Shown: positions 9,990 through 49,871 of the stretch, in pieces
Layout of the letters: each line of letters begins with the position of its first letter
How positions within the stretch are numbered: the stretch's first letter is position 1
Virus record (IMG/VR): IMGVR_UViG_3300043811_000078
From: an uncultured virus (IMG/VR IMGVR_UViG_3300043811_000078)
Lineage: Duplodnaviria; Heunggongvirae; Uroviricota; Caudoviricetes
DNA length: 64,000 bases
Reading direction: 5' to 3' (one strand)
Made by a program: the position numbers and the translations under genes
The notes under the pieces: model-generated
What the model was told of the DNA's origin: nothing
Database searches by the model: none
Seen by the model: the letters and a program-made list of their open reading frames with translations, nothing else

Positions 9990-11468
9990 TCACGTCCCCG
10001 AGTCCCTCCCGAAAAGAGCCTTCCCGATCGTCCGCGCCGCCCGCTGCGCCTGAGGCGACGCAGTCTCGATGTAACCCTCCGTGACGCGGATGTCGGAGTG
10101 GCCGAGCATCTCCTTGACGACCGTGATCGCGACCCCTTCATCGACGGCGAGGGTCGCGGCGGTGTGCCGGGTGCCGTGGACGCCGCGGTGCGCGACGCCC
10201 GAGGCCTCCTGCAGCCGCTTCCACTCCTCCCAGTCCTGCCGCGGGTCGACCGGGCTCCCGTTCCACCGGGTGAAGACGAGGTCGTGCTCCGTCCACTCGG
10301 ATCCGGCGAGCATCTTCGCCTCGAACTGCTTCTCCCGGTGCTCACGGAACGGCGCGCACAGCTCGGGGGGGATGGGGACGGTCTTGACCCTGGCGCGGCG
10401 CTTCTCCTTGATCTCGCGCAGCACGAGGGCACCGGACACCGGGACGCAGCCCTGCGGGAGCTTGCGGTCCGGGCAGTCGCGGGCGTGGCTTTCGCAGTCA
10501 TCCGGGCACGGCGACGGGCACGCCCTGGTGTGCTTCTTGCACCTGGCCGGGCACGGTTTCTTCTTGCAGTGCTTTGCCGCGCACTCGTGGCGCCGTTTCG
10601 CCGCGGCCTTATCGGTCTCGGCCTTGGCCGCCCCCTTCTTCCGCAGCGCCTTCTCCGTCTCGTCAGCGCAGCCGTGCTCCCAGGTGAGCCGCTGGAGCTG
10701 CCAGGAGATCCTCGCCTCGCCGGGCTCTCCCTCGGGAACGTCGATGTTCATGTACTCCCAGCGGAGCCCGAGTACCTCGCCCTGCCGGTTGCCGACCGAC
10801 ATGCCATAGGCCCACCGGAGCCAGTTCCCGCTTTTCTCCGCCTGGGCGAGGACGGCCCGCGCCTGCCTCTTGGTCAGTGATTTCTTCTCTGTCGCCGACA
10901 GCTCGGGGGGGTCGACATAGTCGCACGGGTTCACGATGACCGTCCCGCCGGCGAGGCCGTACTTCTGGGAGCGCTCAGCCTGGACCTTATAGGCGGAGCT
11001 GAGGATGACGTGGACCTTGACGACGTGCGAGGGTGCGTGGCCTGCGGCGAGCATGTCGGCGTAGCCGTCCTCGAGCCACTCGGGGAGCAGCCGGTCGATG
11101 CGGCAGCCGCCCCACCGGGGGAAGATGTCGTTGCGGCACTTCGACCAGTAGTCGGAGATCGTGCGCGGGGCGCGCCCTTTGGCCGGCAGGACGACGGCCA
11201 GGTGCCGGGTGAGCATCTCCTCCACGGTGGGGAGCTTGCCGGGTTTCCCGCCCTGGCCTGCGTCGCGCCTGTTCTCCAGTACGCGGACCGCCTTCCTGAG
11301 TTGAGGGAGGGACTTGCGCTGGAGGTGGCGGCGGTCCGGTTTCCCGTCAGGCTTGATCCCCATCCAGACCTTGGCCTCGTAGTAGCCGCGGTCATTCGGG
11401 ACCTGGCTGACCCACGACTCCAGGTTCGCTTTCCGTGTCCGCTTCGGTCCCGGTCCCGTCTCCGTCAT
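9990..11468 (-). CDS. int: Tyrosine integrase with Cys-rich insertion
   Basis: GNRQGEVLGLRW, HGTRHTAAT, LGHSDIRVTEGY catalytic motifs. Confidence 0.95.
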   Translation of the reverse strand: MTETGPGPKRTRKANLESWVSQVPNDRGYYEAKVWMGIKPDGKPDRRHLQRKSLPQLRKAVRVLENRRDAGQGGKPGKLPTVEEMLTRHLAVVLPAKGRAPRTISDYWSKCRNDIFPRWGGCRIDRLLPEWLEDGYADMLAAGHAPSHVVKVHVILSSAYKVQAERSQKYGLAGGTVIVNPCDYVDPPELSATEKKSLTKRQARAVLAQAEKSGNWLRWAYGMSVGNRQGEVLGLRWEYMNIDVPEGEPGEARISWQLQRLTWEHGCADETEKALRKKGAAKAETDKAAAKRRHECAAKHCKKKPCPARCKKHTRACPSPCPDDCESHARDCPDRKLPQGCVPVSGALVLREIKEKRRARVKTVPIPPELCAPFREHREKQFEAKMLAGSEWTEHDLVFTRWNGSPVDPRQDWEEWKRLQEASGVAHRGVHGTRHTAATLAVDEGVAITVVKEMLGHSDIRVTEGYIETASPQAQRAARTIGKALFGRDSGT

Positions 11469-19711: not shown

Positions 19712-20156
19712 ACGGGCTGCTCGTCGGCGGCGCCGCCTTTTGCATTGCCGGCGGCCTGGGTGCGCTGGCGGTGAATATCGTCGCGTGGGTGCGCGGCCTC
19801 AGCGACCTTGAGTACTGGTCCTCGGGCATCCTGGCCGTGACGAGCTGGATCCTGGTCCCCGCCTGCCTGCTGTCGGGGGACTGGGTTGCCGCTGCCGAGA
19901 ACGCCGTGCTGTCGGTGATATGGCCGCTGGACTGGTGGCGACAGCGGAGGTCCCGCTCATGATGGCCGTCGCCGCCCTGGGCTGCTGCATCATCCATGCG
20001 GCACTCAACGGTCATGACCCCGTGCTGGCGGGGGCCTTCGCCGTGCTGGCCTACCTGGCGGGCGCCGTCCTGACCCTGGCCTCCGTGGCCGGCGGCAACT
20101 GGCCCGGCGTCCTCCTCGGTGCCATGTTCTGCGGCTACTGGACGCTGGCCTGGTGA
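19708..20156 (+). CDS. Two small hydrophobic membrane proteins (19708..19962 and 19959..20156)
   Basis: Overlapping start/stop codons; hydrophobic sequences. Confidence 0.5.
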
Positions 20157-20556
20157 TCCGCGAATGATGCGTCCCGGCTGACGTAACAGCCGGCGAGAGA
20201 ACACCTGATGAGGACAGGAGAGAAGAACGTGGACATCGTAGACCGCAGGACGATGGAAGGACGGAAGGTGGACGGCAGCGAGGCAATAGCCAGGGTCAAG
20301 GCGCTCAGCGAGACCGACAGGGCCTACTTGCTGTACTGGCTGGCCAGCAAGCACCCGGCGACGGTGGACTCGGGCATATCCAGTCTGGAGTTGCACGACA
20401 TGATCGCCAAGGAGGCGGCCGGGGAGTGAACCCGGCCGCGTTGCCTGCGGCCGGGAGCACGCGATCCAGGGCATCACGCACGATGCCCGTTTTAACCCCG
20501 CATCACAGTACACGTCCCGTCACGGAGACGAGGACACAGGAGAGAGGGTAACGGAA

Positions 20557-20766
20557 ATGAGCACAGCCATAGCCGATTACGAGGCACTGCTGACCCCCGC
20601 CGAGGTCGCGACGATGTTCCGCGTCGACCCGAAGACCGTGACACGGTGGGCGAAGGCAGGCAAGCTCACATCAATCCGAACGCTGGGCGGGCACCGGCGC
20701 TACCGTGAGACCGAGGTCCGGGCGCTGCTAGCCGGGATCCCCGTGCGCCTGGCGCAAGCGTCCTGA
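20557..20766 (+). CDS. bldC: BldC-family MerR-like regulator
   Basis: LLTPAEVATMFRVDPKTVTRWAKAGKLTSIRTLGGHRRYRETEVRALL, the BldC signature. Confidence 0.92.
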   Translation: MSTAIADYEALLTPAEVATMFRVDPKTVTRWAKAGKLTSIRTLGGHRRYRETEVRALLAGIPVRLAQAS

Positions 20767-21082
20767 CTGCCCGGTGCTGTCGTAAGCGGCACCGCAAGAC
20801 GTGACCGTGCGGGACCGCGGACCCCCCCTCCGCGCTCCCGCACGGCACGCGAAGCCCCGCCCCCTGTCACCGGCCCCCAGCTGACCTGCCCGGCCAGTTG
20901 CCGGCAGGCCGCGAAGCGGGACAACGGAGACGGGGGGCGGGGCGACCGGAAAACAATGCAACGGGGAACTGGACGTTAAATAACTCAAGGCAAACCCGGT
21001 ATTAGCAGCCGGGTTTACTTTGCATACCCGGAAATGCATAACACCAGCTCACAGTACGATTCCGGTTAATTGCCGGATGCGT

Positions 21083-21139
21083 TTGACATGGCTGTACGCG
21101 ACCGGTAGCTTTCCGTTCCGCGAGAGAAAAGAAAGGAGG
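21083..21139 (+). promoter_or_regulatory. Housekeeping-type promoter and RBS of the CRISPR effector
   Basis: TTGACA (21083)-N17-TAGCTT (21106); AAAGGAGG at 21132. Confidence 0.8.
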
Positions 21140-21148
21140 CGACCATCA

Positions 21149-23785
21149 GTGCCCACGGAAATCAGGATGATCCAGCAGGCGTATAAATTCGCACTGGACC
21201 CGACACCCGCGCAGGCCCGGATGTTCGCCTCTTTCGCGGGCGCGAAGCGCGCATCGTTCAACTTCGCCCACGCCATGATCATGGCGGGGGCCGACGCCTG
21301 CAAAGCCAGGAAGGACGAGCTCGTTCTCCGGTACCTGTCCGAGGGGCTGAGCGAATCCGAGGCGGCACGCAAAGCCAAAGCCGAGGCCGAGGCCGCGATC
21401 CCGGTTCCCCGGCAGATGAAAATCCCGGACCCCGCAGACCCCAGGAAGATCAGGGTTCTCCACAGAGGGGTCGGCGTCGAATGGACCGAGTTCACGCGCA
21501 CCGCCGTGGGCTGCACGACCTGCCGGCGCCTCCTCGCCCGCGACCCCGGATCAAGCGCCCCGTGGGCCGACGCCCGCACCGGCAGCGTTACCTGCGACCC
21601 TGACGTGCTGAAACGCCTCGGCATCGAGGGGGAACCTGGACCGCACGACCCCACCGGCGTCGGCTGCAAACGCTGCTGGAACCCCCTGCACCAGGCCCCG
21701 GACGGCACCTGGGCAGACAAGAACGGCTCGGGCGCCTGCCCCGAGGCCCGCGAGGCCGGCGCACCCCACGAGCCGCGCAGCGACTTCATGGCCTGGACGA
21801 AGGACGTGTTCTCCGGCACGATACAGGCCGCCCACCGCGACGCCGACGTTGCATGGCAGCGGTTCCTGCACGGGAAATCCCGCCGCCCCCGGTTCAAGAA
21901 GAAAGGCAAGTGCACCGAGTCGTTCCAGGTGCACGGCGACGACCTGGGCATCCCGGAGACGACGGAGGCGGAAAGGATAAGGATCCCGGAGGCGGTGGCC
22001 GCCCTCAGGCCGCACGGGAAACGCCCGGTGCAGCAGCAGACCGCGCAGCACATCACGCTCCCGAAAATCGGCCCGGTCCGGGTCATGTCCGACGACAGCC
22101 TGCACCCGGCGATGCGGCGCAGCCGCCGCAGGGGCTCCGGCGTGACGCCCGCGCGCCGGCCGGGACGCAAGCTCAAAGCGGCCCGGGCGCGCCTCGAAGC
22201 GGCCGGGCGCGCTTACGAGCATGCAGCCGAGACCATGCCGGAGATCCCCGCGTCCACCCTGCATGAGGTCAGCGCCGCCCGGGATGCTGCCGCCAGGGCA
22301 GAACAGGCCGTCGCGTACGCCAGGCAGCGCGACGCCGGGCACGGCCGCCACATGGGAAACCGCCGGCGCTTCCGTCAGCTGCACCGGCACATGCGCAAGA
22401 GCAGCGAGAAAGCCGCCCGGCTCGGCCCGCTGCTGCGGCAGGTCCGCGAAGACGCCGGCTGGACCCTCGATCAGGCCGTGGCCCTCCTCGGTGCCGAGGC
22501 TGACGCCCGTGCGGTCGCCGCCGTGCGGGTACGTCTCGCCGCCGCCGAGGATGCCGTAGCCATCGCGGCTGCTGCTGCCGCTGAAGCCGTGGCCGCAGGA
22601 GACGCCGAGGGCGCTGCGGCGGCGGAGAAAGACCAGAGGAACGCGCGGAACCGCGTCAAGGGCGCACTGAAGAGGCTGGGGGACCTGGCTGCCGCGAAGC
22701 CGGGGGAGAAAGCGTCCCGCACCGACCGGTGGAGTGCCGCCAAGCTGAAGAAGCTGGAAGCTACCGGGGTCACGCTGGGCCTGGACCAAGCCAGCGTCAT
22801 CTGCTCCGCCTACCAGCTTGCCGGCCCTCTCCGCGAGCAGGTGACGGACCTCGCCGCGCAGGCCAGGATCGTCCGCGCCACCATCACCCTCGGCGCCGAC
22901 GGCCTGTGGTGGTGCTCAGCCGGCGCCGAGGTCCCGTATGCCGTGCGCACCGCGCCGTCGAAGCGCCAGGAAGCGCGGGGAACTGCCGGGATCGACTTCG
23001 GCACCGCGCGGATCATGACGGTGACCGGCCGGCGCCCTGCCGGTGCCCCCGGCTACTACGAGAAGGAACTGGCAGCGCTCAGTGCCGCCCAGCGGCACGC
23101 CGCCCGCGCTGTCCCCGGCTCGGGGCGGCACCGCAAGGCGACGGCGAAAGCCGGGCTCATCCACGCCGACGTGGCCAGGCTCCGTGCCGACACCCTGCAC
23201 CGGGCCACGACGAGCCTGAGCCGGAACTTCTCCGCGCTCAGCTTCGAGGGCTTCAACGTGCAGCAGCTGATGCGGGACGGCTCCCGGGGGCTGCCCCGCC
23301 AGGCGCGCGGGCGCCGGAACCGGTCGCTCGCGGACACGGGCATCGGCATGGCCCGTGACATGCTCCGGAACAAGGGTCCGAGGTGGGGTGCGACAGTGGT
23401 CGCGCTCGGCCCGGACGTCATCACGATCACAGGACCCCGGCCGGAGGACGCGAGAGAAGCGGACCTCCCGCCGGGTGCGAAGCCGAACGGCACATGCGCC
23501 GGGTGCGGGCAGGCGAGAACCAAGCCAGCCCGCCCTCATGAGGCGCTGTACCGGTGTGACGCGTGCGGTCGCGTCAGGCTGCGCACCCTCAACAGCGCTG
23601 AGAACATCCGCCGGTGGGCGGATGAGGCGCTTACCGCAGATCCCGGCTGCGCAACCAGCGGGCCGGATCAGTCTCGTGGAGGAGATGAACCCGCGACAGT
23701 AGGTGCGGGACGATCTCCGGTGAAGCGAGCAGCCATAACCTCATCGCGGCCGCGCCGCGGTGAGGCTGGCACCCCTGGCGGGTAA
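21149..23785 (+). CDS. 878-aa TnpB-derived, CRISPR-adjacent type V-like effector; RuvC probably inactive
   Basis: OrfB N-terminus AYKFALDPTPAQ; PRFKKK; ITLPKIG; RuvC-I GIDFG (D616); RuvC-II SFEG (E700); CAGC..CDAC Zn finger; RuvC-III LRTLNSAENI. Confidence 0.9.
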   Translation: MPTEIRMIQQAYKFALDPTPAQARMFASFAGAKRASFNFAHAMIMAGADACKARKDELVLRYLSEGLSESEAARKAKAEAEAAIPVPRQMKIPDPADPRKIRVLHRGVGVEWTEFTRTAVGCTTCRRLLARDPGSSAPWADARTGSVTCDPDVLKRLGIEGEPGPHDPTGVGCKRCWNPLHQAPDGTWADKNGSGACPEAREAGAPHEPRSDFMAWTKDVFSGTIQAAHRDADVAWQRFLHGKSRRPRFKKKGKCTESFQVHGDDLGIPETTEAERIRIPEAVAALRPHGKRPVQQQTAQHITLPKIGPVRVMSDDSLHPAMRRSRRRGSGVTPARRPGRKLKAARARLEAAGRAYEHAAETMPEIPASTLHEVSAARDAAARAEQAVAYARQRDAGHGRHMGNRRRFRQLHRHMRKSSEKAARLGPLLRQVREDAGWTLDQAVALLGAEADARAVAAVRVRLAAAEDAVAIAAAAAAEAVAAGDAEGAAAAEKDQRNARNRVKGALKRLGDLAAAKPGEKASRTDRWSAAKLKKLEATGVTLGLDQASVICSAYQLAGPLREQVTDLAAQARIVRATITLGADGLWWCSAGAEVPYAVRTAPSKRQEARGTAGIDFGTARIMTVTGRRPAGAPGYYEKELAALSAAQRHAARAVPGSGRHRKATAKAGLIHADVARLRADTLHRATTSLSRNFSALSFEGFNVQQLMRDGSRGLPRQARGRRNRSLADTGIGMARDMLRNKGPRWGATVVALGPDVITITGPRPEDAREADLPPGAKPNGTCAGCGQARTKPARPHEALYRCDACGRVRLRTLNSAENIRRWADEALTADPGCATSGPDQSRGGDEPATVGAGRSPVKRAAITSSRPRRGEAGTPGG

Positions 23786-23820
23786 CTGCCAGGCGTCCCA
23801 TGCACTGCCCATGGCGGGCA
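23673..23820 (+). ncRNA. Omega-RNA/tracr-like structured RNA overlapping the effector 3' end
   Basis: CTCG-TGGA-GGAGAT..ATCTCC-GGTGAAG-CGAG nested stems, a 12-bp hairpin, and CCTGGCGG-GTAA-CTGCCAGG. Confidence 0.6.
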
Positions 23821-23871
23821 CGCCTAACTCAATAGCGGATATTGCGCGCACAAACTTGCTGGCCGCGAAGA

Positions 23872-25604
23872 GTGCGGCCCACGGGCGCTGGGGCGACGGG
23901 TCACCGGCCTGATCTCGCGGAAGGCCCGTGAGGTGCGGCCCACGGGCGCTGGGGCGACGGGACCACGCCGAGTTCGTGCCCGCTACCCGGGATGTGCGGC
24001 CCACGGGCGCTGGGGCGACGGGCTCTCCGCGGACAACCAGGTGATCTACACAACGTGCGGCCCACGGGCGCTGGGGCGACGGTTGGCAGAAAATCTCCGA
24101 TGATTACCGTCTCTGGTGCGGCCCACGGGCGCTGGGGCGACGGTTGGCCTGTCCGGCTCTTGGATGCCGGTCGCTTGTGCGGCCCACGGGCGCTGGGGCG
24201 ACGGGGACACCGGTCCCCGCCGCGCCGGTGCGCATCAGTGCGGCCCACGGGCGCTGGGGCGACGGATTGACCTCACATGGACAACGTGGACGGACAAAGT
24301 GCGGCCCACGGGCGCTGGGGCGACGGGACTCCGCCGAGCCGCCGGGCCGAGCTGGAGATGTGCGGCCCACGGGCGCTGGGGCGACGGCTGGAATTGCCTA
24401 GAGATATGCCAAGTCTCTACGTGCGGCCCACGGGCGCTGGGGCGACGGTCCACTACCGGTCAATCTCCCGAGTCCGGGAATAGTGCGGCCCACGGGCGCT
24501 GGGGCGACGGTTTACCACGACATGCTGACGAGCGGTGGCCGGAGTGCGGCCCACGGGCGCTGGGGCGACGGTCCCTTTGCCCGCTGTGCACGGGCCGTGG
24601 GCAGGTGCGGCCCACGGGCGCTGGGGCGACGGGTAGTCCCTGTTACTTGGGCGTAATATCCGGACGTGCGGCCCACGGGCGCTGGGGCGACGGGCATGAT
24701 CAGTAAGCAGTCCCCTCGCGATCGAGTGTGCGGCCCACGGGCGCTGGGGCGACGGCTTGACCCGAAGTTCTGGTTGCTTGACCTCAGTGTGCGGCCCACG
24801 GGCGCTGGGGCGACGGTTGCTGAGCTGAGCGTTCGGCGCCCTCGAAAGGGTGCGGCCCACGGGCGCTGGGGCGACGGGACACCGCTCATATCCTGCGCCA
24901 TCGAGATGGCGTGCGGCCCACGGGCGCTGGGGCGACGGGAATGAACATTGCTACTCTTTGCTCAGAATGTGGTGCGGCCCACGGGCGCTGGGGCGACGGT
25001 ATGTCGGCCCGTCGGTTGGCTAGGGACGGGAGGTGCGGCCCACGGGCGCTGGGGCGACGGTGAACCTGACTCAGATGGTGATGGAGGCCGAAGGTGCGGC
25101 CCACGGGCGCTGGGGCGACGGGCCAAGGCGCAGCCCCCACCATGAGCGGTTGGTGTGCGGCCCACGGGCGCTGGGGCGACGGACCGGCGTGCCGCGTTCG
25201 CGATCGAGGCTTCGTGTGCGGCCCACGGGCGCTGGGGCGACGGTCTGAGAACTCGGGACTGGCAACAGCGTGCTGTGTGCGGCCCACGGGCGCTGGGGCG
25301 ACGGGAGGTCGGCCCGCTACATCGTCCGTGACGCCAGGTGCGGCCCACGGGCGCTGGGGCGACGGGCCACCGGGCACCGGGGTGAAACGCACGCCGGAGT
25401 GCGGCCCACAGGCGCTGGGGCGACGGGATGACGCTGCCGGGCACGGCCAGCAGCGCGATGTGCGGCCCACGGGCGCTGGGGCGACGGTTTGATATTTTGC
25501 TGGGTGTTAGTGCCTTCGTCGTGCCGGCCTGCGGGCGCGGGGACGGCGGTACAAGGTGGGTAATCGAGGCAAGGAGCCACGCGTGCGGCCCGCAGGGGCG
25601 ACGG
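23872..25604 (+). CRISPR. Type I-E-like CRISPR array: 27 intact repeats (one with a SNP) plus 2 degenerate distal repeats; 28 spacers
   Basis: GTGCGGCCCACGGGCGCTGGGGCGACGG at 61-nt period; spacers 33 nt (two of 34 nt); degenerate copies at 25521 and 25583, possible remnant at 25641. Confidence 0.99.
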
Positions 25605-25758
25605 TCTGGTCAGCAAGGGGCGCCTGTCCGGCATTAGCAGGCGCGGCCCGCAGATCCGGGTCTGGCCGACCCGGAATCTGGCGCGCGGGATGACGGCCGA
25701 GTTGCAGGAGGGTCCAGGGGGCGGCGGGTTCCTTGACTGGCAGAGGGGAGCGCGACAA

Positions 25759-26694
25759 ATGAAAGGCGCATTACCGGCCAAAGCGACGGAACTCAGCCGC
25801 ATCAGCGACCGGCTCAGCTTCCTGCACGTTGAGCATGCAAGGATCGACCGCGACCTGAACGCAGTCACCATCTGGCAAGCCGAAGGGGTCGCGAGCATCC
25901 CCGCTGCTGTGCTCGCGGCGCTTCTCCTCGGCCCCGGCGTGACGATCACCCACGCCGCCATCTCGCTCCTGGCCGGCAGCGGGTGCACCGTCGCGTGGGT
26001 GGGCGAGGAAGGCGTCCGCCTCTACGCCGGCACCACGGCAGCAGCGGCATCGTCGGTGCTGCTGCAACGGCAGGCCGCGCTCGTCACCGGGCAGAAAACC
26101 CGCATCGCCGTCGCCCGGCAGATGTACGCGATGCGGTTCCCCGGCGAGGATGTCTCCCGGCTGAGCATGCAGCAACTGCGCGGCCGGGAAGGCGCCCGGG
26201 TCCGCGCCTGCTACCGGCTGCACGCAGAGAAAACCGGCACCGCATGGCGCGGCCGGAGATACGACCCGAAGGACTGGAGCGCGGGTGACCCGGTGAACAG
26301 GTGCCTGTCGGCCGCGAACTCCGCCCTCTACGGCATCACCCACGCCGCGATCCTGCACCTCGGGTGCAGTCCAGGGCTCGGATTCGTCCACACCGGGCAC
26401 CAGCTGTCCTTCGTGTACGACATCGCGGACCTGTACAAGGCGGAGGTCACGATCCCGGCGGCGTTCGGGATCGCCGCGGAAGGCGGCCGGGATCTCGGGG
26501 CTAAGACCAGGCGCGCGGTGCGGGACGCGATCGTCTCAGCGCGGCTGCTGCCCCGCATCGCCGATGACATCCGGGGACTGCTCGGCGCCCCCGGAGATGA
26601 CGGCGAGACAGTCGCGGGGATCGCGGTGCCGGACCTGATCGACGACCACGGCACTGTGCCGGGCGGCGTCAGCTACGGGGAGGACGGGCCGTGA
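25759..26694 (+). CDS. cas1: Type I-E Cas1
   Basis: DRLSFLHVEH, LLLGPGVTITH, WVGEEGVRLYA, QLRGREGARVR, SPGLGFVHTG, FVYDIADLYK. Confidence 0.97.
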   Translation: MKGALPAKATELSRISDRLSFLHVEHARIDRDLNAVTIWQAEGVASIPAAVLAALLLGPGVTITHAAISLLAGSGCTVAWVGEEGVRLYAGTTAAAASSVLLQRQAALVTGQKTRIAVARQMYAMRFPGEDVSRLSMQQLRGREGARVRACYRLHAEKTGTAWRGRRYDPKDWSAGDPVNRCLSAANSALYGITHAAILHLGCSPGLGFVHTGHQLSFVYDIADLYKAEVTIPAAFGIAAEGGRDLGAKTRRAVRDAIVSARLLPRIADDIRGLLGAPGDDGETVAGIAVPDLIDDHGTVPGGVSYGEDGP

Positions 26695-26984
26695 TCGTCC
26701 TTGTCCTCACTTCGGTGCCGCCGGGGCTGCGCGGCGACCTGTCCCGGTGGCTCCTGGAGATCGCCCCGGGCGTGTTCACCGGGAAAGTATCGCGGCGTGT
26801 CCGGGAGCACCTGTGGCGCCGGGTCCGGTTCGGCGTCCTGCAAGGAGGGTCGGCGGTCATGGTGGTCACTGACCGGGGCAGGGAGCAAGGCTGCGAGATC
26901 CTGACGGCCGGGGCGGGACGGTGGACGGCGGCGGACTTCGAGGGGCTGACGCTGATGGTCAGGCCGCGTCCGGGAACACGGTGA
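26691..26984 (+). CDS. cas2: Type I-E Cas2
   Basis: VPPGLRGDLSRWLLEIAPGVFTGKVSRRVREHLW...DFEGLTLM. Confidence 0.96.
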   Translation: MIVLVLTSVPPGLRGDLSRWLLEIAPGVFTGKVSRRVREHLWRRVRFGVLQGGSAVMVVTDRGREQGCEILTAGAGRWTAADFEGLTLMVRPRPGTR

Positions 26985-30398: not shown

Positions 30399-30814
30399 CC
30401 CGCAAGACGGACGAAGGCAAGCGGGCGCAAGCCCGGCAGCTCTACGCGACGACGCTGACCACGCGGGCCATCGCCGCCCGGCTCGGCGTCGACCCGCGTA
30501 CAGTGCAGCGGTGGCTCGGCGACGCGACGCGCCCGCGCGGTCCGCGCAAGCGCCCCGATGTGCCCGACAGCAAGATCGTCGAGCTGCGCGAGCGGGAGGG
30601 CCTGTCGTTCGCCGCGATAGCTGCCCTCACCGGCATGTCGGCGACGGGCGCACGGAACCGGTACTGGGCGATCACCGGCAGGCCGCGAGCCGAGCGGAAG
30701 CCGGGGGACCAGGACGCGCCGCCGCACGCGAACGGCGCGGCTCACACCCCGAGCAGCACAGGCCAGGTCGCCGGCCCGACCACCCCGTCGGCGACGATCC
30801 CGGCGCCCGACTGA
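30395..30814 (+). CDS. Tandem HTH DNA-binding protein
   Basis: TTRAIAARLGVDPRTVQRWL; GLSFAAIAALTGMSATGARNRY. Confidence 0.75.
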   Translation: MTRKTDEGKRAQARQLYATTLTTRAIAARLGVDPRTVQRWLGDATRPRGPRKRPDVPDSKIVELREREGLSFAAIAALTGMSATGARNRYWAITGRPRAERKPGDQDAPPHANGAAHTPSSTGQVAGPTTPSATIPAPD

Positions 30815-31593
30815 ACGTTCCTGACCGCCATCTGGGTCACAGGCCCGAAATCCCCGTCGACGGCGATCAGGTGCCCTCGCGAGACGCAGAGCCCCTGTAC
30901 GGTCCGCACAGCGGCGGCGTCGGCACTTCCGGCTGTGACCTCGGGTAGCTGCTGCATCATGGCCTCCTGCCAGTCAGGTACGGGACGCGGGCCGGCCGGC
31001 GCGGGCTTCCCCGCACGCCCCGCGATCCACGCGTCAAGCTCCGCCCTCGTCCCGTTGAACGCGTCGTGGTCGAGGTTCCCCGGTGAACCCCACTGCCAGA
31101 AACGCCAGGTGCCCCACGGTGCGACCAGCGCCGGGGCGGTAGCTGACGGCCACGCCACCCACAGGTCATAGCCGGTGCACGAGGTCAGCGCCTTCGCCAC
31201 GGTCAGGTCCGAGTAGACCAGCACCGGGGAAGCCGGGGCGGCAGCATGGACAGAATCGCAGAACGCTTTGACTTCGCTGTCCGTCACGCCCTGGTAGTCC
31301 GAGACAACGACCGCCAGCATGTCGCCAGCCTCCAGGCCCTCCGCGATCACGGTCGCCAGGAAGTACCGGGCCTGGACCAGCCCGGACGCCGCAGCCGGGG
31401 ACACCAGCTCGTGGTAGGCACCTCTGCGGATGCCCGCCGCCTTCACCGCCGCCCAGTTCCGGGCGAAGTTCGCGTCCGCGAGCTGGTCGCCGTTCGTGGC
31501 CTTGCAGAACGCGAAGTCGAGCCCTTCCAGGGCGGCCGGGGTCAGCGGAGGCTGATAGGCCGAGACATCGATCCCCTGCGCGCTAGCAGTCAT
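30742..31593 (-). CDS. Endolysin (GH25 muramidase plus peptidoglycan-binding domain)
   Basis: GIDVSAYQ, FAFCKAT, RGAYH, WRFWQW; VDGDFGPVT...ADGVVGPATW. Confidence 0.92.
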   Translation of the reverse strand: MTASAQGIDVSAYQPPLTPAALEGLDFAFCKATNGDQLADANFARNWAAVKAAGIRRGAYHELVSPAAASGLVQARYFLATVIAEGLEAGDMLAVVVSDYQGVTDSEVKAFCDSVHAAAPASPVLVYSDLTVAKALTSCTGYDLWVAWPSATAPALVAPWGTWRFWQWGSPGNLDHDAFNGTRAELDAWIAGRAGKPAPAGPRPVPDWQEAMMQQLPEVTAGSADAAAVRTVQGLCVSRGHLIAVDGDFGPVTQMAVRNVQSGAGIVADGVVGPATWPVLLGV

Positions 31594-45652: not shown

Positions 45653-48600
45653 TTACGCCCCGCCGACTGCCATGGCCAGGCGCCGCTCGATCTCCGCCAT
45701 CTGCTCCGCGTTCGGCAGCTGCGTGCCCACGAAGTTCACCGTCACTGGCGGCCGGGTCCCGCCGCCGGACTGCCCCGAGGTCATCTGCTGCACGAGCCTG
45801 AGGAACGCGACCGACTGGTCCGGGGTCAGGACCGCTTCCGGTTGCCCGGTGAGGTTCGGCGGTCCCGTCATCCACCCTCCGCTGTCGAACGAGCCCCAGC
45901 CCATCGCGTGGTAGACGGCGTTGGCCGAGGACATCCGCTGCGGCAGTGACGCGGACAGGTTCGCGGGCTTCTCGTAGTAGTCCTGGTACAGCAGCGCCGC
46001 GTTGCTCGGCGACGTGGCCCGGTTGACGATCCCGAGGCCGCCGCCCCACGACAGGATCGCGTTGAGCTGCGTCATCAGGTCCGCCTGCGCATTGCCGGTG
46101 ATGTAGCCGGGCGGGTAGGGCGTCCACTGGATCAGGCCGCCTCCGCCGCCGCCTCCGGTCTCCAGGATCTCCGGGTCGCCACCCGACTCGGCGTCGATAT
46201 TTCCTGTTATGCCCGCCGCTGCGTACTTTGTCGCACCGTGGGAGGCGAGGAACGACGCGATCGGCTTCCAGTTGGCCGGCAGGCTCCCGGTCGCCCCGCT
46301 GCTGCCGCCCGGCAGGCTCCCGCCTCCGCCGGACACCGACCCGGACAGCTTCCGCGCCAGATCGGTGATCAGCGCCTTCGGGATGCCGGTCATGATCTTG
46401 CCCAGATCACCGGCGGCGCCGGTGCCGATCATCTTCGCAGCCGCGTTCGTGAACGCCGCCGTGTTGCCCGTCGCGATGGCCGCGACCATCTTCGCGATGT
46501 CGAGCGCCCCGCCGATTGCGCCGGAGACCGCATGCCCGGCGTCGCTGGCAGCGTGCGACAGCCAGCCCGGGACAAGGCCGCCACCGGCGAACATCCCCGC
46601 CGTCGCCACGTGCTCGGCAGGACGCTCGACGGTGTGCTTGCGCAGTTCTTTCAGCGGCAGCTTCACCGCCATCTTCGCCACCGCGTCGTGACCGCCCGGT
46701 GCCGCCGATGACGGCGGGTACGCCTTGTTGAGCGCGTCGATCGTGGGCTTCCCGCCGACCGCCCGGGTCGCCTGCGGGGTCAGGATCCCCTCACCGCCGC
46801 TCACCGCCGCCAGGTGATTGTCCCTCCCCGGCGACCAGCCGGGCACGACGCCGCCGTGCGCCAGCGCGGGGATGACCGGGAGCTTCAGCGACCCGAGGCC
46901 GATCGCCTTGACGACCGAATCCCACAGCTTCGCGATGCCGTCGTCGTACACGGTGCTGATCAGGAAGTTCACCGGCGTCTTGAAGACAGATTCGAGTTTG
47001 CCCCACACCGTGCCGAACCCGGAGACGAACGTGCGCGCCCCCGACTCGATGCCCTGCCATACCGGGTCGAAAACGTTGTGCCACATCCACAGGGCCGCGT
47101 TCTCCAGCCCGGCGATATCGGTCTTGATGTCCTGGATGACCGGCGCGATGCCGCTGGAGTACAGCCGCTGCGCCCCCGCCGAGATCCCCTGCCATACCGG
47201 GTCGAGCACGTCATGCCACAGCCAGTCCGCCACGTCGCCGATCTGGCGGAACCCGGTCCCGAAGTCCGTGCTCAGCTCGTCCAGCGCCCCGGACGTGAAC
47301 TCGCCGAAGGCCTTCGCGACGGGTGCGAGGCCGCCGGTGCTGAGCCCGAGGAGTGCCGCGACCGCGCGGCCGATCACGTCGATCACCTTGCCGGTCCCGG
47401 TGACGAGCCGTGCCAGCGGCGGCAGGATGAACCCGAGCTCGGCGGAGGTCAGCCGCAGGTTCGCCCGCAGGCCCGCTGCGAGGATGTCAGCGAACCCGGT
47501 GATCAGCGGCATCAGCGACTGGAGCACGGGCACCAGCGCGGTCGCGAGCTGCGCGATCATCTGCCCGAGCTGCGGCAGCACCGGGGCGAGCGCGACAGCG
47601 ATCTTGCTCACCGCCTGCCCGAGAACACCCAGCAGCGGGCCCACCCCGACAAGTGCCGCGGCGAGGCCCTGGCCGAGTGCCCCGGTCAGCGCCCGGAACC
47701 CGGGCAGGAGCGCCGAGAGGGCCGGTGCCAGCGCGGACGCCAGTGCCCCGATCACCTGCCCTAGCGGGCCGCCGATGGCGGCCAGGGCCGACCCGAGGGT
47801 AGAAAACACGGACGACAGCGACGAGGTGAACGGGGCGAGGCCCTTCTCCAGCCCGGTGAGGCCGTCCGCCAGGCCGGCCAGCAGGTTCGCCAGCCCGTCG
47901 ACCGCGCCCTTCTTGCTGCCGACGACGGCGAGTTCCCGGATGAACCCGGCGAACGCCGGGAGCACGATGTCAGTGAACCGGATGCCGTTGCTGATCAGCC
48001 CGTCGAGGACCTTCGCGAACGCGGGCGTCTGCATCTGCTTCCCGAACGCCCCGAACGCGCCCGAGATGGCGGCGCCCATCCGGCCTACCCCGGACTCGAT
48101 CGAGGGCAGCAGCGACTTGATGCCCTGCAGCCAGATCGTCATGCCGGGCAGCACCGTGTTCTGCGCGATGCTCTCCAGGGTCCGGAACGCGGGCTCGAGG
48201 CCGAGGAAGACGTTGACGAACGCCCGGCCGGCGGGGGTGAGCTTGCTCATGTCCAGGGCGAACTGGTTCGCGCTGGAGTTGGCCGTGGACATCATCGACG
48301 CCCACTGGAGCTGCTGCTCCTTGATCGTGTTCGTCACGTTCTGCTGGGCGATCGCGACGGACTGGGCGTCCATCTTCTGCTGGTACGCCGCCTGCTCCTG
48401 TGCCGACGCCACCTGCATCTGCGCCTGCTTGACCTGCTCGGCGTTGTTGAGCTCAACGTTGGTGACGTTGACCTGGGCGTCCTTGTAGGACTGCAGTGAG
48501 TCGGTGAGGGAGTCCTGCGCGGCCAGGAGCGCCTGCTTGGCCTGGATCACCACCTGCGACCCGTCGACGCCCTGGCTGTTGGCCAGGTTCGCCGAGGTCT

Positions 48601-49871
48601 GCGCGTCCGACTCGCTGGCGGTCGCGTCGGTGACCTGCTGCTTGGCCTGTGCCACGGCCAGGGCCGCCTGCTCGCGGTCAAGATCGGTCGAGTAGGCGTT
48701 CTGATTGACGAGCAGCTCGTTGTATTCCGCCTGCTGCACCGCCAGGCTCGCGGACTTCACGTTCAGTTTCGCGTCGGCCAGGGCGTCGTTTTCCTGGACG
48801 ATCGCCTCGCGGGCCGACACGTACGCCTGCCCGAGGGTGTACTGCGCCTCGCCGAGGTTGTACGTGGACTGCTGGACCTGCTGCTGCGCCTGCCCGACAG
48901 CCTGGATCGCCTGGACCTGCGCCGCGGCGGCGTTCCGCTCGGTGCTGGCCAGGTTCATCTGCGCCTGCTCGATGGACTGCGCGGACGTGATCTGGTCCTG
49001 CGCGGACTGCTCGGATGCCTGGGCGACGCCCTGCTGCGCCTGCTGCACCTGGACGGAGTCGGAGAACTGCTGGGCGGCGAGTTGCTGGCTCGTCATCCCG
49101 ACGTTCTGCGACGCCTCATGGCTGGCCTCGAGAGCTTTCGCGATCCCGGAGAACGCCAGGTACCCGGTGCCGCCGAGCAGTCCCAGCCCGGTCGCCGCGC
49201 CCGCGAACCCCGGCGACAGGGCGGCGAGGCCGGTCGCGATGCCGCCGATCATCCCGCCGGGAAAGTCCGGCACGGAGAAGCCGCCGCCGCTTTCGTCTTC
49301 CTCGTCCTGCAGTGCCTTGATCTGCGCCTGCAGGGCGGCGATCTTCATCTCGGCCGGGGTGGCGTCCGCGTCGATGGTGATGCCCTGCTTCTGCAGCCGC
49401 AGGATCGCAAGCTGCATCTTCAGGTCATCGATCGCCCCCTTGGCGGAGGCGTCGTCCGCGCCGATCTCTACCTCGGCATGGGAGCCGTCAAGGTCATCGC
49501 GGCTGGCCTTGACGTCATCAAGGTCGGCCTTGGCCTCATCGGCGTCGGCGGCGACCTTGAGACTGGCGTCGCTGCCGTCTAGCTCGTTCCGGCTGGCCTT
49601 GACGTCATCAAGGTCGGCCTTGGCCTCATCGGCGTCGGCGGTGACCTTGATCTCGGCCTTGCTGCCGTCGAGGTCGTCTTTTTTCTCCCTGACCTCATCG
49701 AGGCCGTCTTTCGCTTCCTCGGTGTCGGCGGTGACGGTGATCTTGACCTTGCCCTCGACGCCCTCGGTCGCTTCCTGGACCTTGGCTTCGAGTTCCTCGG
49801 CGAAACCGTCCAGATCGGGCGATACCGTGACGTAGGCACTGGCAATGCCTTAATCGGAAGCCTTCCGGCAT
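45653..49871 (-). CDS. Tape measure protein with C-terminal phage-tail lysozyme domain; frame break near the start
   Basis: About 1400-codon A/Q/G-rich frame with W/F periodicity and 30-aa N-terminal repeats; AGITGNIDAESG..GLIQWT; ATG at 49871 is out of frame. Confidence 0.9.

Follow-up and report, generated by a model that had tools for sequence, protein, structure and literature searches.

RuvC-disabled type V effectors that bind DNA without cutting it are known in subtypes V-M and V-C of the CRISPR systems and are predicted for others, and TldR, a RuvC-inactivated derivative of TnpB, likewise acts by RNA-guided DNA binding. Here we analysed a further candidate, the effector gene and the adjoining CRISPR array in a stretch of 64,000 nucleotides (nt) from an uncultured virus of the Caudoviricetes (IMG/VR record IMGVR_UViG_3300043811_000078); the whole stretch is called the window below. 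The effector, a protein of 872 amino acids designated P0001, is related to Cas12n and carries Thr where the third catalytic Asp of the RuvC site is expected. This kind of system, with a RuvC-altered type V effector, is already known. The locus can be described as a hybrid borne by a soil phage, in which a Cas12n-related single effector and an omega-RNA-derived scaffold are combined with an array of type I-E-like make and with Cas1e-Cas2e encoded by the phage itself, and by analogy with Cas12m we consider it probable that P0001 is an RNA-guided, non-cutting DNA binder.

RuvC inactivation has arisen repeatedly in type V systems, and about 50 independent captures of TnpB as Cas12 are known, some of them with an altered RuvC-III (PMC12669027, PMC10691335). 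The RuvC-inactivated TnpB and Cas12 derivatives described in one of these sources lost cleavage and act via RNA-guided DNA binding (PMC10691335). Cas12m (V-M, formerly V-U1) is described as binding without cutting and as silencing plasmids and phages, with a coiled coil in its recognition (REC) lobe and with Arg-rich elements by which DNA binding is strengthened; variants whose triads read HDD, NDD or even DED showed binding and no cleavage, and still gave protection from phages and plasmids (PMC10442227, PMC11013384). A first-pass annotation of this DNA had named nuclease-deficient derivatives as precedents for P0001, and the precedent is a sound one as far as these reports go, RuvC-altered Cas12m protecting by binding and not by cutting (PMC10442227, PMC11013384). 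The Cas12n proteins (V-N, formerly V-U4) are proven effectors on arrays of the type found here (PMC12216341).

The RuvC site of the effector

The open reading frame (ORF) of the effector starts at ATG 21167 (MIQQAYKF...; MIQQAYKFALDPT...) and continues in a single frame through 23785, in a window with a G+C content of 69.6%. The protein matched the Pfam families OrfB_IS605 (E 1.7e-12) and, at its N terminus, HTH_OrfB_IS605 (E 2e-7), and reached 103.4 bits against the NCBIfam model guided_TnpB (cut-off 100). In the feature list below, family members are the 60 related proteins with Arg (R state) or Thr (T state) at the position of the third catalytic Asp; relatives that keep the Asp are referred to as D-state.

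21167..23785, + strand: effector gene, encoding the TnpB-derived, Cas12n-related protein P0001 of 872 amino acids
22154..22855, + strand: long helical, coiled-coil-like REC insertion, residues ~330-563 (DSSP of the AlphaFold2 model)
22346-22369, + strand: Arg-rich motif RHMGNRRR within the REC insertion
22994..22996, + strand: RuvC-I Asp D610 in GIDFG, retained (D in 60/60 family members)
23246..23248, + strand: RuvC-II Glu E694 in SFEG, retained (E in 60/60 family members)
23495..23566, + strand: CxxC...CxxC zinc finger, C777/C780/C797/C800, which includes A793
23585..23587, + strand: Thr T807 at the position of the RuvC-III catalytic Asp, motif LRTLNSAENI (aligned with RdCas12n D484)

The placement of T807 was approached in two ways. 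In a phmmer comparison with PDB sequences, 'RTLNSAENI' of P0001 paired with 'RDLNAAVNI' of 9J09_A, the Asp of which is residue 484, and the catalytic residues of this protein, RdCas12n, are given as D287/E386/D484 (PMC12216341). T807 also lies seven residues from the last zinc-binding Cys, C800, the same spacing as in ISDra2 TnpB, where D361 sits seven residues past C354 (PMC10097598). Judged by alignment and spacing, T807 occupies the true catalytic position. The first-pass annotation had read the RuvC-I Asp and the RuvC-II Glu as intact and the third Asp as replaced by Thr at codon 23585-23587; both GIDFG and SFEG are read in the ORF, and the codon is exactly the one that aligns with RdCas12n D484. 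Its coordinates were correct, while its residue numbers, for which an upstream start had been assumed, were six too high (T813 is T807).

An AlphaFold2 model of P0001, built on an alignment of 130 sequences, had a mean pLDDT (predicted local distance difference test) of 89.1 and a pTM (predicted template-modelling score) of 0.84. Residues 803-805 form a strand and 806-823 a helix in the model, and the tail, residues 830-872, is disordered. The best PDB matches found with Foldseek were ISFba1 TnpB (target TM 0.76) and then ISDra2 TnpB, followed by Fanzor2, Cas12p, TranC, Cas12f and Cas12m2. The Arg-rich motif of the REC insertion, in the form [RK]HxGN[RK]3, was present in 9/9 T-state and 32/51 R-state proteins and in 0/57 ordinary TnpBs. 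A separate Cys-rich, mostly beta insert at 21500-21780 (residues ~112-205; GCTTCRRLL...VGCKRCWNPL...GSGACPE) was modelled with high confidence and is missing from family members of ~500 amino acids; possibly it gives the REC lobe one more module that binds zinc.

The substitution is not confined to P0001. A word-indexed search returned 40 homologues, and a full HMMER scan 1,751 proteins at E <=1e-3, with 29 cluster representatives at E <=1e-30. In the 40-sequence alignment, nine proteins (P0001 and its close clade, with >=70% identity to P0001) have T and the remaining 31 have R, in the motif xRRLNTA, which answers the first-pass proposal that conservation of the change be looked for in homologues. 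In the 130-sequence alignment, in which ordinary TnpBs were included, 51 sequences had R in column 807, nine had T, 57 had D and 13 had some other residue. Since the column is non-Asp (R or T) throughout the family, T807 is, as far as the alignment can tell, a family trait and not a chance lesion.

Two further positions changed together with column 807. At position 695, just after the catalytic Glu, 59/60 family members have G, while 44/57 ordinary TnpBs have D; at position 793, in the zinc finger, R is found in 43/57 ordinary TnpBs and E in 42/60 family members, with A or V in the T clade. The residue sets at 695/793/807 are therefore written D-R-D for ordinary TnpBs, G-E-R for the R clade and G-A/V-T for the clade of the window, and P0001 has no charge at either 807 or 793. 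In a FastTree of the conserved core (all 130 rows, midpoint rooting, support values not inspected), D-R-D was followed by G-x-D/Q at the base and then by G-E-R, with the G-A/V-T clade nested inside G-E-R. Positions 793 and 807 probably touch, in which case an Arg/Asp pair would have given way to a swapped Glu/Arg pair and then to two small residues. The Arg at 793 of ordinary TnpBs presumably corresponds to the Arg that is required for cleavage in Cas12f. As a side observation, CxxC...CxxC is kept in the T clade and in some R lineages, while the zinc-finger cysteines are gone from many R-state members (CSVDG...SDQCGH is one example).

Array, scaffold RNA and adaptation genes

Downstream of the effector, on the same strand, lie a predicted scaffold RNA, an array and two adaptation genes.

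23673..23871, + strand: conserved structured RNA (putative omega-RNA, or a scaffold like trans-activating CRISPR RNA), which overlaps the ORF 3' end and extends to the first repeat
23872..25487, + strand: CRISPR array, type I-E-like, in which a 28-nt repeat (GTGCGGCCCACGGGCGCTGGGGCGACGG) occurs 27 times and is separated by 26 spacers of 33-34 nt, in a 61-nt period
25690..26694, + strand: cas1e, full length (TIGR03638 361.1 bits, cut-off 215.6; PADLOC Cas1e E 8.5e-128)
26691..26984, + strand: cas2e (TIGR01873 64.4 bits, cut-off 33.15; Pfam Cas_Cas2CT1978 E 5.4e-29)

The array begins 86 nt past the effector stop codon, and 26/27 of its repeats are identical, the repeat at 25399 having one mismatch. 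This arrangement recurs across the family: a same-strand array starts 63-210 nt past the stop in 11/11 evaluable R/T-state loci, namely the window (the same sequence as L010), L007, L014, L016 (on the contig of L006), L017, L018, L019, L020, L021, L022 and L029. The array of L019 consists of two repeats only, and L011, L012 and L013 were left out of the count, as their sequence stops short of the stop codon. The 11 loci span crown and basal R-state lineages. Among D-state relatives from the same scans an array was found in 2/48 evaluable loci, L090 (Nocardiopsis) and L099 (Prauserella); this tally started from 53 loci with D, of which five with less than 200 nt downstream were dropped, and two loci without a readable motif were dropped as well. 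The repeats themselves vary between family loci and co-vary with the effector lineage, with the length and the ...CGACGG 3' end kept. Because arrays follow the gene in 11/11 family loci as against 2/48 ordinary relatives, P0001 is, on this genomic evidence, a CRISPR effector and not the remnant of an insertion sequence (IS), and the first-pass naming of the protein as an effector holds. A single large effector with a TnpB-type RuvC fold and a conserved array linkage, both of which are found here, are features of type V.

The region between effector and array is conserved at another level. Eight loci, whose proteins are 35-45% identical to P0001, could be aligned from ~170 nt before the stop to the first repeat, with a mean column identity of 61%. 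RNAalifold proposed 40 pairs, 14 of them changed on both sides; 95.2% of cells were paired compared to 84.3% in shuffles, and 0/500 shuffles reached the observed value on any of five measures, the structure being tested on the same alignment from which it was derived. When partners were slid by 1-3 columns, 36-44% of cells were paired and 0-4 covarying pairs remained. Mapped onto the window, the helices fall between 23673 and 23793, and one hairpin, 23774-23793, has a GTAA loop that contains the stop codon TAA (23783-23785). A weak match to the Rfam family RF03015 (Transposase-2 RNA) at 23722-23797 did not reach the gathering score (23.8 bits compared to 42.7; E 0.18). In L099 and L090 the motifs CGTGGAG..., CCTAACTCAATAGCGG and GCAGGTCAGGAAGT, which precede the array of the window, lie downstream of and outside the ORF, with I-E-type repeats after them. 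Since the encoded tail 830-872 is disordered and the same motifs stand outside the ORF in these two loci, the conservation over the ORF end acts at the nucleic-acid level.

A comparison of repeat complementarity in the window and other loci gave no convincing anti-repeat. The strongest complementary stretch in the window, 21536-21575, lies inside the effector ORF in the Cys-rich insert (-49.3 kcal/mol, compared to a background of 500 windows with mean -27.3, sd 5.0 and minimum -43.5 kcal/mol), and it had no conserved counterpart in seven other loci. Close to the scaffold 5' end, several loci share an element of the CCGTCGCC type with complementarity to the 3' end of the repeat; L007, L021 and L014 are the clear cases, and the element is not found in the window. 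The motif before repeat 1 (CTAACTCAATAGCGG) was considered as a general I-E leader and rejected: it occurred with <=1 mismatch in 11/401 sampled Actinomycetes genomes, no more often than a reversed control, and among six inspected match loci (five genomes) only L126, at the L099 locus of genome G002, adjoins an array. Separately, a variant of the locus in the soil run X8 lacks 6 nt in frame and differs by two T>C changes, all in the region of ORF tail and scaffold (23745; 23668, 23796).

The window carries the hallmarks of type I-E adaptation, with cas1e, cas2e, 28-nt repeats and a 61-nt period. Cas1e matched the solved I-E Cas1 8hi1 of the PDB (E 5.2e-95) over residues 24-331, nearly its whole length, and keeps the stretches GREG, GFVHTGH and YDIADLYK, which we take to hold catalytic residues. 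Neither Cascade (Cse1, Cse2, Cas7e, Cas5e, Cas6e) nor Cas3 was found among the 42/68 candidate ORFs of the window scanned with PADLOC, and nine of the 11 array-linked loci had no I-E gene in the sequence fetched. The only other family locus with cas1e/cas2e is L006, on the L016 contig, and it holds fragments only. On this 154-kb IMG/VR contig, whose family member is 45% identical, an N-terminal piece of cas1e (amino acids 24-112, 67% identical) abuts a C-terminal piece of cas2e (amino acids 44-92) at ~10092-10509, just past the array, which suggests that an ancestral cas1e-cas2e decayed there. A degenerate form of the repeat occurred in multi-copy, 61-nt-spaced runs, which may belong to I-E loci, in ~10/401 sampled Actinomycetes genomes; the 114/401 genomes with any repeat match include single chance-level matches and the unpublished genome G038, on which nothing rests.

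Phage context and natural variants

Genes assigned with PHROGs, among them minor tail proteins, identify the window as a temperate tailed phage or prophage.

9990-11468: integrase (PHROGs)
20557..20766, + strand: small BldC/excisionase-like helix-turn-helix gene, 69 amino acids, upstream of the effector (Pfam HTH_17 and MerR; PADLOC mad1 E 2.3e-13)
30742-31593: endolysin (PHROGs)
45653-49417: tape measure protein (PHROGs)

The nearest record found, an IMG/VR virus contig of 68.8 kb (G001, with loci L001/L002), is 100% identical to the window on both flanks and is without 20219-24849. Lost with this 4.6-kb segment are the effector, the BldC-like gene, a small ORF and the 16 repeat-spacer units at the front of the array; 11 repeats and cas1e-cas2e are still present in G001. 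The breakpoint coincides exactly with the start of a repeat and shows AGG/GG microhomology, and G001 looks like a natural deletion variant. The long form is also present in the independent metagenome contig L010, and two other family loci were found on IMG/VR contigs. Among the 24 sequencing runs listed for the locus none was an RNA run. In contigs of four soil metagenome runs (DNA) the effector was almost unchanged, and the same repeat was flanked by spacers absent from the window; these extra spacers fit spacer turnover, but the same picture would arise from different arrays that share the repeat.

No close relative of P0001 was found in isolated phages, as a tblastn search of 50,697 phage records returned four records, all <=26% identical and all ordinary TnpBs. 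In GTDB representative genomes the R/T family was not found with the patterns used; the 36 loci returned were all D-state or partial. A scan of 20100-24000 for promoters and terminators gave 0 promoter-like sites, and a tRNA search of the window gave none.

BldC-like homologues were detected by tblastn beside the effector in L014, L019, L020, L007 and L012. In 5/11 family loci such a gene lies within a few kb of the effector, duplicated in some of them and placed on one side of the array or the other (L014 9255-9422; L019 3768-3929; L020 1128-1646; L007 10068-10513); it may work together with the effector or may be just an early gene that is common in actinophages. The window also encodes a phage DNA methyltransferase-like protein at 1297-2655 (PADLOC Type IIG REase-MTase/DrmMI-like, E 5.8e-19; phrog_25988).

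Readings of the locus and comparison with known systems

P0001 lacks the third carboxylate, the usual Arg at 793 and the Asp at 695, and keeps Asp-I and Glu-II. With two of three metal ligands, two-metal DNA hydrolysis would not be expected at this site, and we infer from the sequence that cleavage was lost. In the mechanism that we propose, the effector would be loaded with CRISPR RNA (crRNA), possibly together with the scaffold RNA, find targets flanked by a protospacer adjacent motif (PAM) and hold a stable R-loop. The bound effector would then block replication or transcription of competing mobile elements or superinfecting phages and leave their DNA uncut, as with Cas12m. In Cas12m2 the remaining site is described as holding one Mg2+ and the non-target strand (PMC11013384, PMC10442227); D610 and E694 probably hold one metal ion as well, which could be at the other metal position, and might serve to grip the displaced strand or to process guide RNA. 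The helical REC insertion and RHMGNRRR probably add binding energy, in parallel to the coiled-coil REC2 and Arg-rich pocket of Cas12m. New spacers would be supplied by Cas1e-Cas2e. Type I-E and type V systems both read a 5' PAM beside the spacer 5' end, so spacers acquired by the I-E machinery should be directly usable by the effector. The AAN PAM of Cas12n (PMC12216341) is a further reason to expect this.

Several observations weigh against a non-cutting binder that silences other elements. There was no credible match for the 26 spacers, and hence no target class: searches against GenBank phages and against PLSDB plasmids each gave a best E of 0.1, comparison with the window and all fetched loci recovered nothing beyond the same array, in L001, L002 and L010, and a search of IMG/VR with exact 25-nt cores of two of the 26 spacers gave 0 matches. 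Since G001 lacks the effector and 16 repeat units and yet keeps cas1e-cas2e, the effector is dispensable for this phage variant. The invariance of D610 and E694 in 60/60 R/T-state proteins indicates that the site is under selection, which would also fit a rearranged, still active nuclease or RNase. In such a protein another acidic residue would complete the metal site, and DNA, or only single-stranded DNA or RNA, would be cut; the candidates are E793 in the R clade, swapped with R807, and, by sequence, E792 beside position 793 or an acidic residue of the clade-specific loop 751-770 (E760/E764/D766) in the clade of the window. R807 and E793 are specific, conserved replacements, present in 51 and 42 of the 60 proteins, respectively, and resemble a charge swap of R793/D807. 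Conserved RuvC-III substitutions are moreover said often to mean retained activity, and compensated RuvC-II rearrangements as well as six branches with altered RuvC-III were read as probably active, in the survey cited (PMC10691335). However, the clade of the window has small uncharged residues at both swap partners (A/V at 793, T807) and has lost D695 too, and on the RuvC-III helix the new acidic residue closest to the site, E812, is five residues further along and would, by the model, not share the same helical face. Restoring the DED triad in Cas12m2 did not bring back cleavage (PMC10442227), so such a site can be inactive for more than one reason. A rearranged and active site is, taken together, unlikely for P0001.

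A second alternative would leave the retained Asp and Glu with scaffold or pre-crRNA processing only, interference being carried out by, for instance, a host I-E Cascade-Cas3 and P0001 acting as an accessory or regulator. The I-E-like repeats, the matching pattern in 61-nt-spaced multi-copy arrays of ~10/401 Actinomycetes genomes, the phage's Cas1e-Cas2e with no Cas6e or Cascade found among the ORFs scanned, and the retention of array and cas1-cas2 without the TnpB-like gene in G001 would all agree with it. Yet gene, scaffold RNA and array are strictly linked in 11/11 loci, nine of them without an I-E gene in the sequence fetched; the repeats follow the effector lineage; and the Cas12n relatives with intact RuvC are proven effectors on such arrays (PMC12216341), which makes this division of labour doubtful, and more so than a rearranged site. 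The least credible proposal is a decaying IS605/IS607 TnpB that landed beside an orphan I-E array and lost its Asp by pseudogenisation. Pfam and NCBIfam do label P0001 a TnpB transposase accessory protein, and relatives are annotated 'transposase' by the Joint Genome Institute (JGI), but the intact ORF of 872 amino acids with coding-type G+C at third codon positions, the confidently modelled fold and the nearly unchanged locus in several soil runs are not those of a decaying gene. No transposase or TnpA was found in the PADLOC scan of 42/68 candidate ORFs or in a Pfam scan of flanking genes, a second effector copy was not found in G001, and the conservation of substitution and array linkage over 60 proteins and 11 loci, down to 35% identity, contradicts such a decay, which we regard as very improbable.

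We therefore retain the RNA-guided, non-cutting DNA binder of the Cas12m kind as the best reading of P0001. The first-pass annotation had proposed such a binder or repressor, acting by adaptive silencing or as a replication roadblock. Its binding part is strengthened by the status of P0001 as a CRISPR effector, the family-wide loss of the third carboxylate, the uncharged position 793 and, by analogy, the Cas12m precedent; for silencing or a roadblock no protospacer was found. The relation to Cas12n, the phage setting and the correlated remodelling of three residues go beyond what that annotation had recognised. The wider picture is put forward more tentatively, as a serious possibility that we rate somewhat below the binder itself: a temperate actinophage with a self-contained chimeric CRISPR system, in which a class 1, type I-E spacer integrase feeds a class 2, Cas12n-derived effector. 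Stepwise and correlated rewiring of three active-site residues, from D-R-D via G-E-R to G-A-T, would have made this former nuclease a clamp that holds DNA and does not cut it, still with an omega-RNA-like scaffold, for heritable adaptive silencing of rival mobile elements without DNA breakage. If true, the lineage would show in cis how type V comes to use I-E adaptation, and would explain the A-rich, I-E-like PAMs of Cas12n-type effectors. With a type I-E integrase and a Cas12n-like effector on one phage, the proposed cross-class use of I-E adaptation becomes directly testable, and the omega-RNA-like scaffold beside a true array bears on the origin of CRISPR arrays from TnpB guides. Each independent case of a binder shows which scaffold changes are needed to turn a cutter into a clamp, and a programmable DNA binder with a compact core, predicted to be naturally nuclease-free, could possibly be used in repression or base editing.

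TldR and Cas12k have one fixed guide beside a regulated gene or a Tn7-like transposase partner, whereas the window has a 26-spacer array and an integrase, with no transposition genes found. Cas12m resembles P0001 as a compact TnpB-like effector with a non-canonical RuvC, Arg-rich elements and a REC coiled-coil insertion. It is a separate lineage, however, and the described V-M loci are without adaptation genes; P0001 showed no phmmer match to it at E <=1 among PDB sequences, and the family profile reached UnCas12m4a at E 1.3e-7 only. The two also differ in the residues that were altered, Cas12m changing residues 1 or 2 (HDD, NDD) and keeping the third Asp, while P0001 does the reverse, so that a different metal site is probably affected. 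The retention of residues I and II with loss of III and two neighbours, and the natural series D-R-D, G-E-R, G-A-T, offer material for mechanistic work.

By sequence the closest system is Cas12n. The PADLOC family that best matched P0001 was Cas12u4 (E 4.4e-49, 165.6 bits), with Cas12f close behind (E 2.6e-48), and the family profile compared with the PDB gave RdCas12n 9J09 (E 6.8e-57), followed by ISDra2 TnpB (7.1e-46), UnCas12m4a (as above) and Cas12p (0.012). The Prauserella protein of L099 has an intact DED triad and an ED...R...DRD pattern and matched RdCas12n at E 9.9e-76, which makes it an effector of the Cas12n type; its identity to P0001 in the RuvC region is only 29%. On sequence grounds the P0001 family is a RuvC-remodelled relative of Cas12n, not clearly inside it. 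Both are actinobacterial and TnpB-like, with the array directly downstream, and in the Cas12n work cited the guide-scaffold RNA overlaps or abuts the ORF 3' end and the C-terminal tail is disordered (PMC12216341), as the tail of P0001 is in the model. Cas12n, in contrast, has an intact D-E-D and cuts double-stranded DNA, where P0001 has T at the third Asp (R in most of the family) and changes at 695/793. P0001 is also larger, with 872 compared to ~400-700 amino acids, owing to the helical REC insertion and the Cys-rich insert, and the locus of the window is phage-borne and carries cas1e-cas2e.

Cas12r of the Thermus Lalka phages is likened to the system of the window by its description. Cas12r, too, is TnpB-like and encoded by a phage, and behind its gene lies an array in which 29-bp I-E-like repeats alternate with spacers of 32-33 bp; its authors propose that type I-E adaptation, that of the host, feeds the array, and that the system serves in conflicts between mobile elements, with rival integrative elements as its targets (bioRxiv 10.64898/2026.04.20.719267). 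Cas12r differs in needing RuvC activity, as D238A abolishes interference (bioRxiv 10.64898/2026.04.20.719267), and in having crRNA only, a thermophilic host and no cas1/cas2 of its own, the pair of genes that the phage of the window carries itself.

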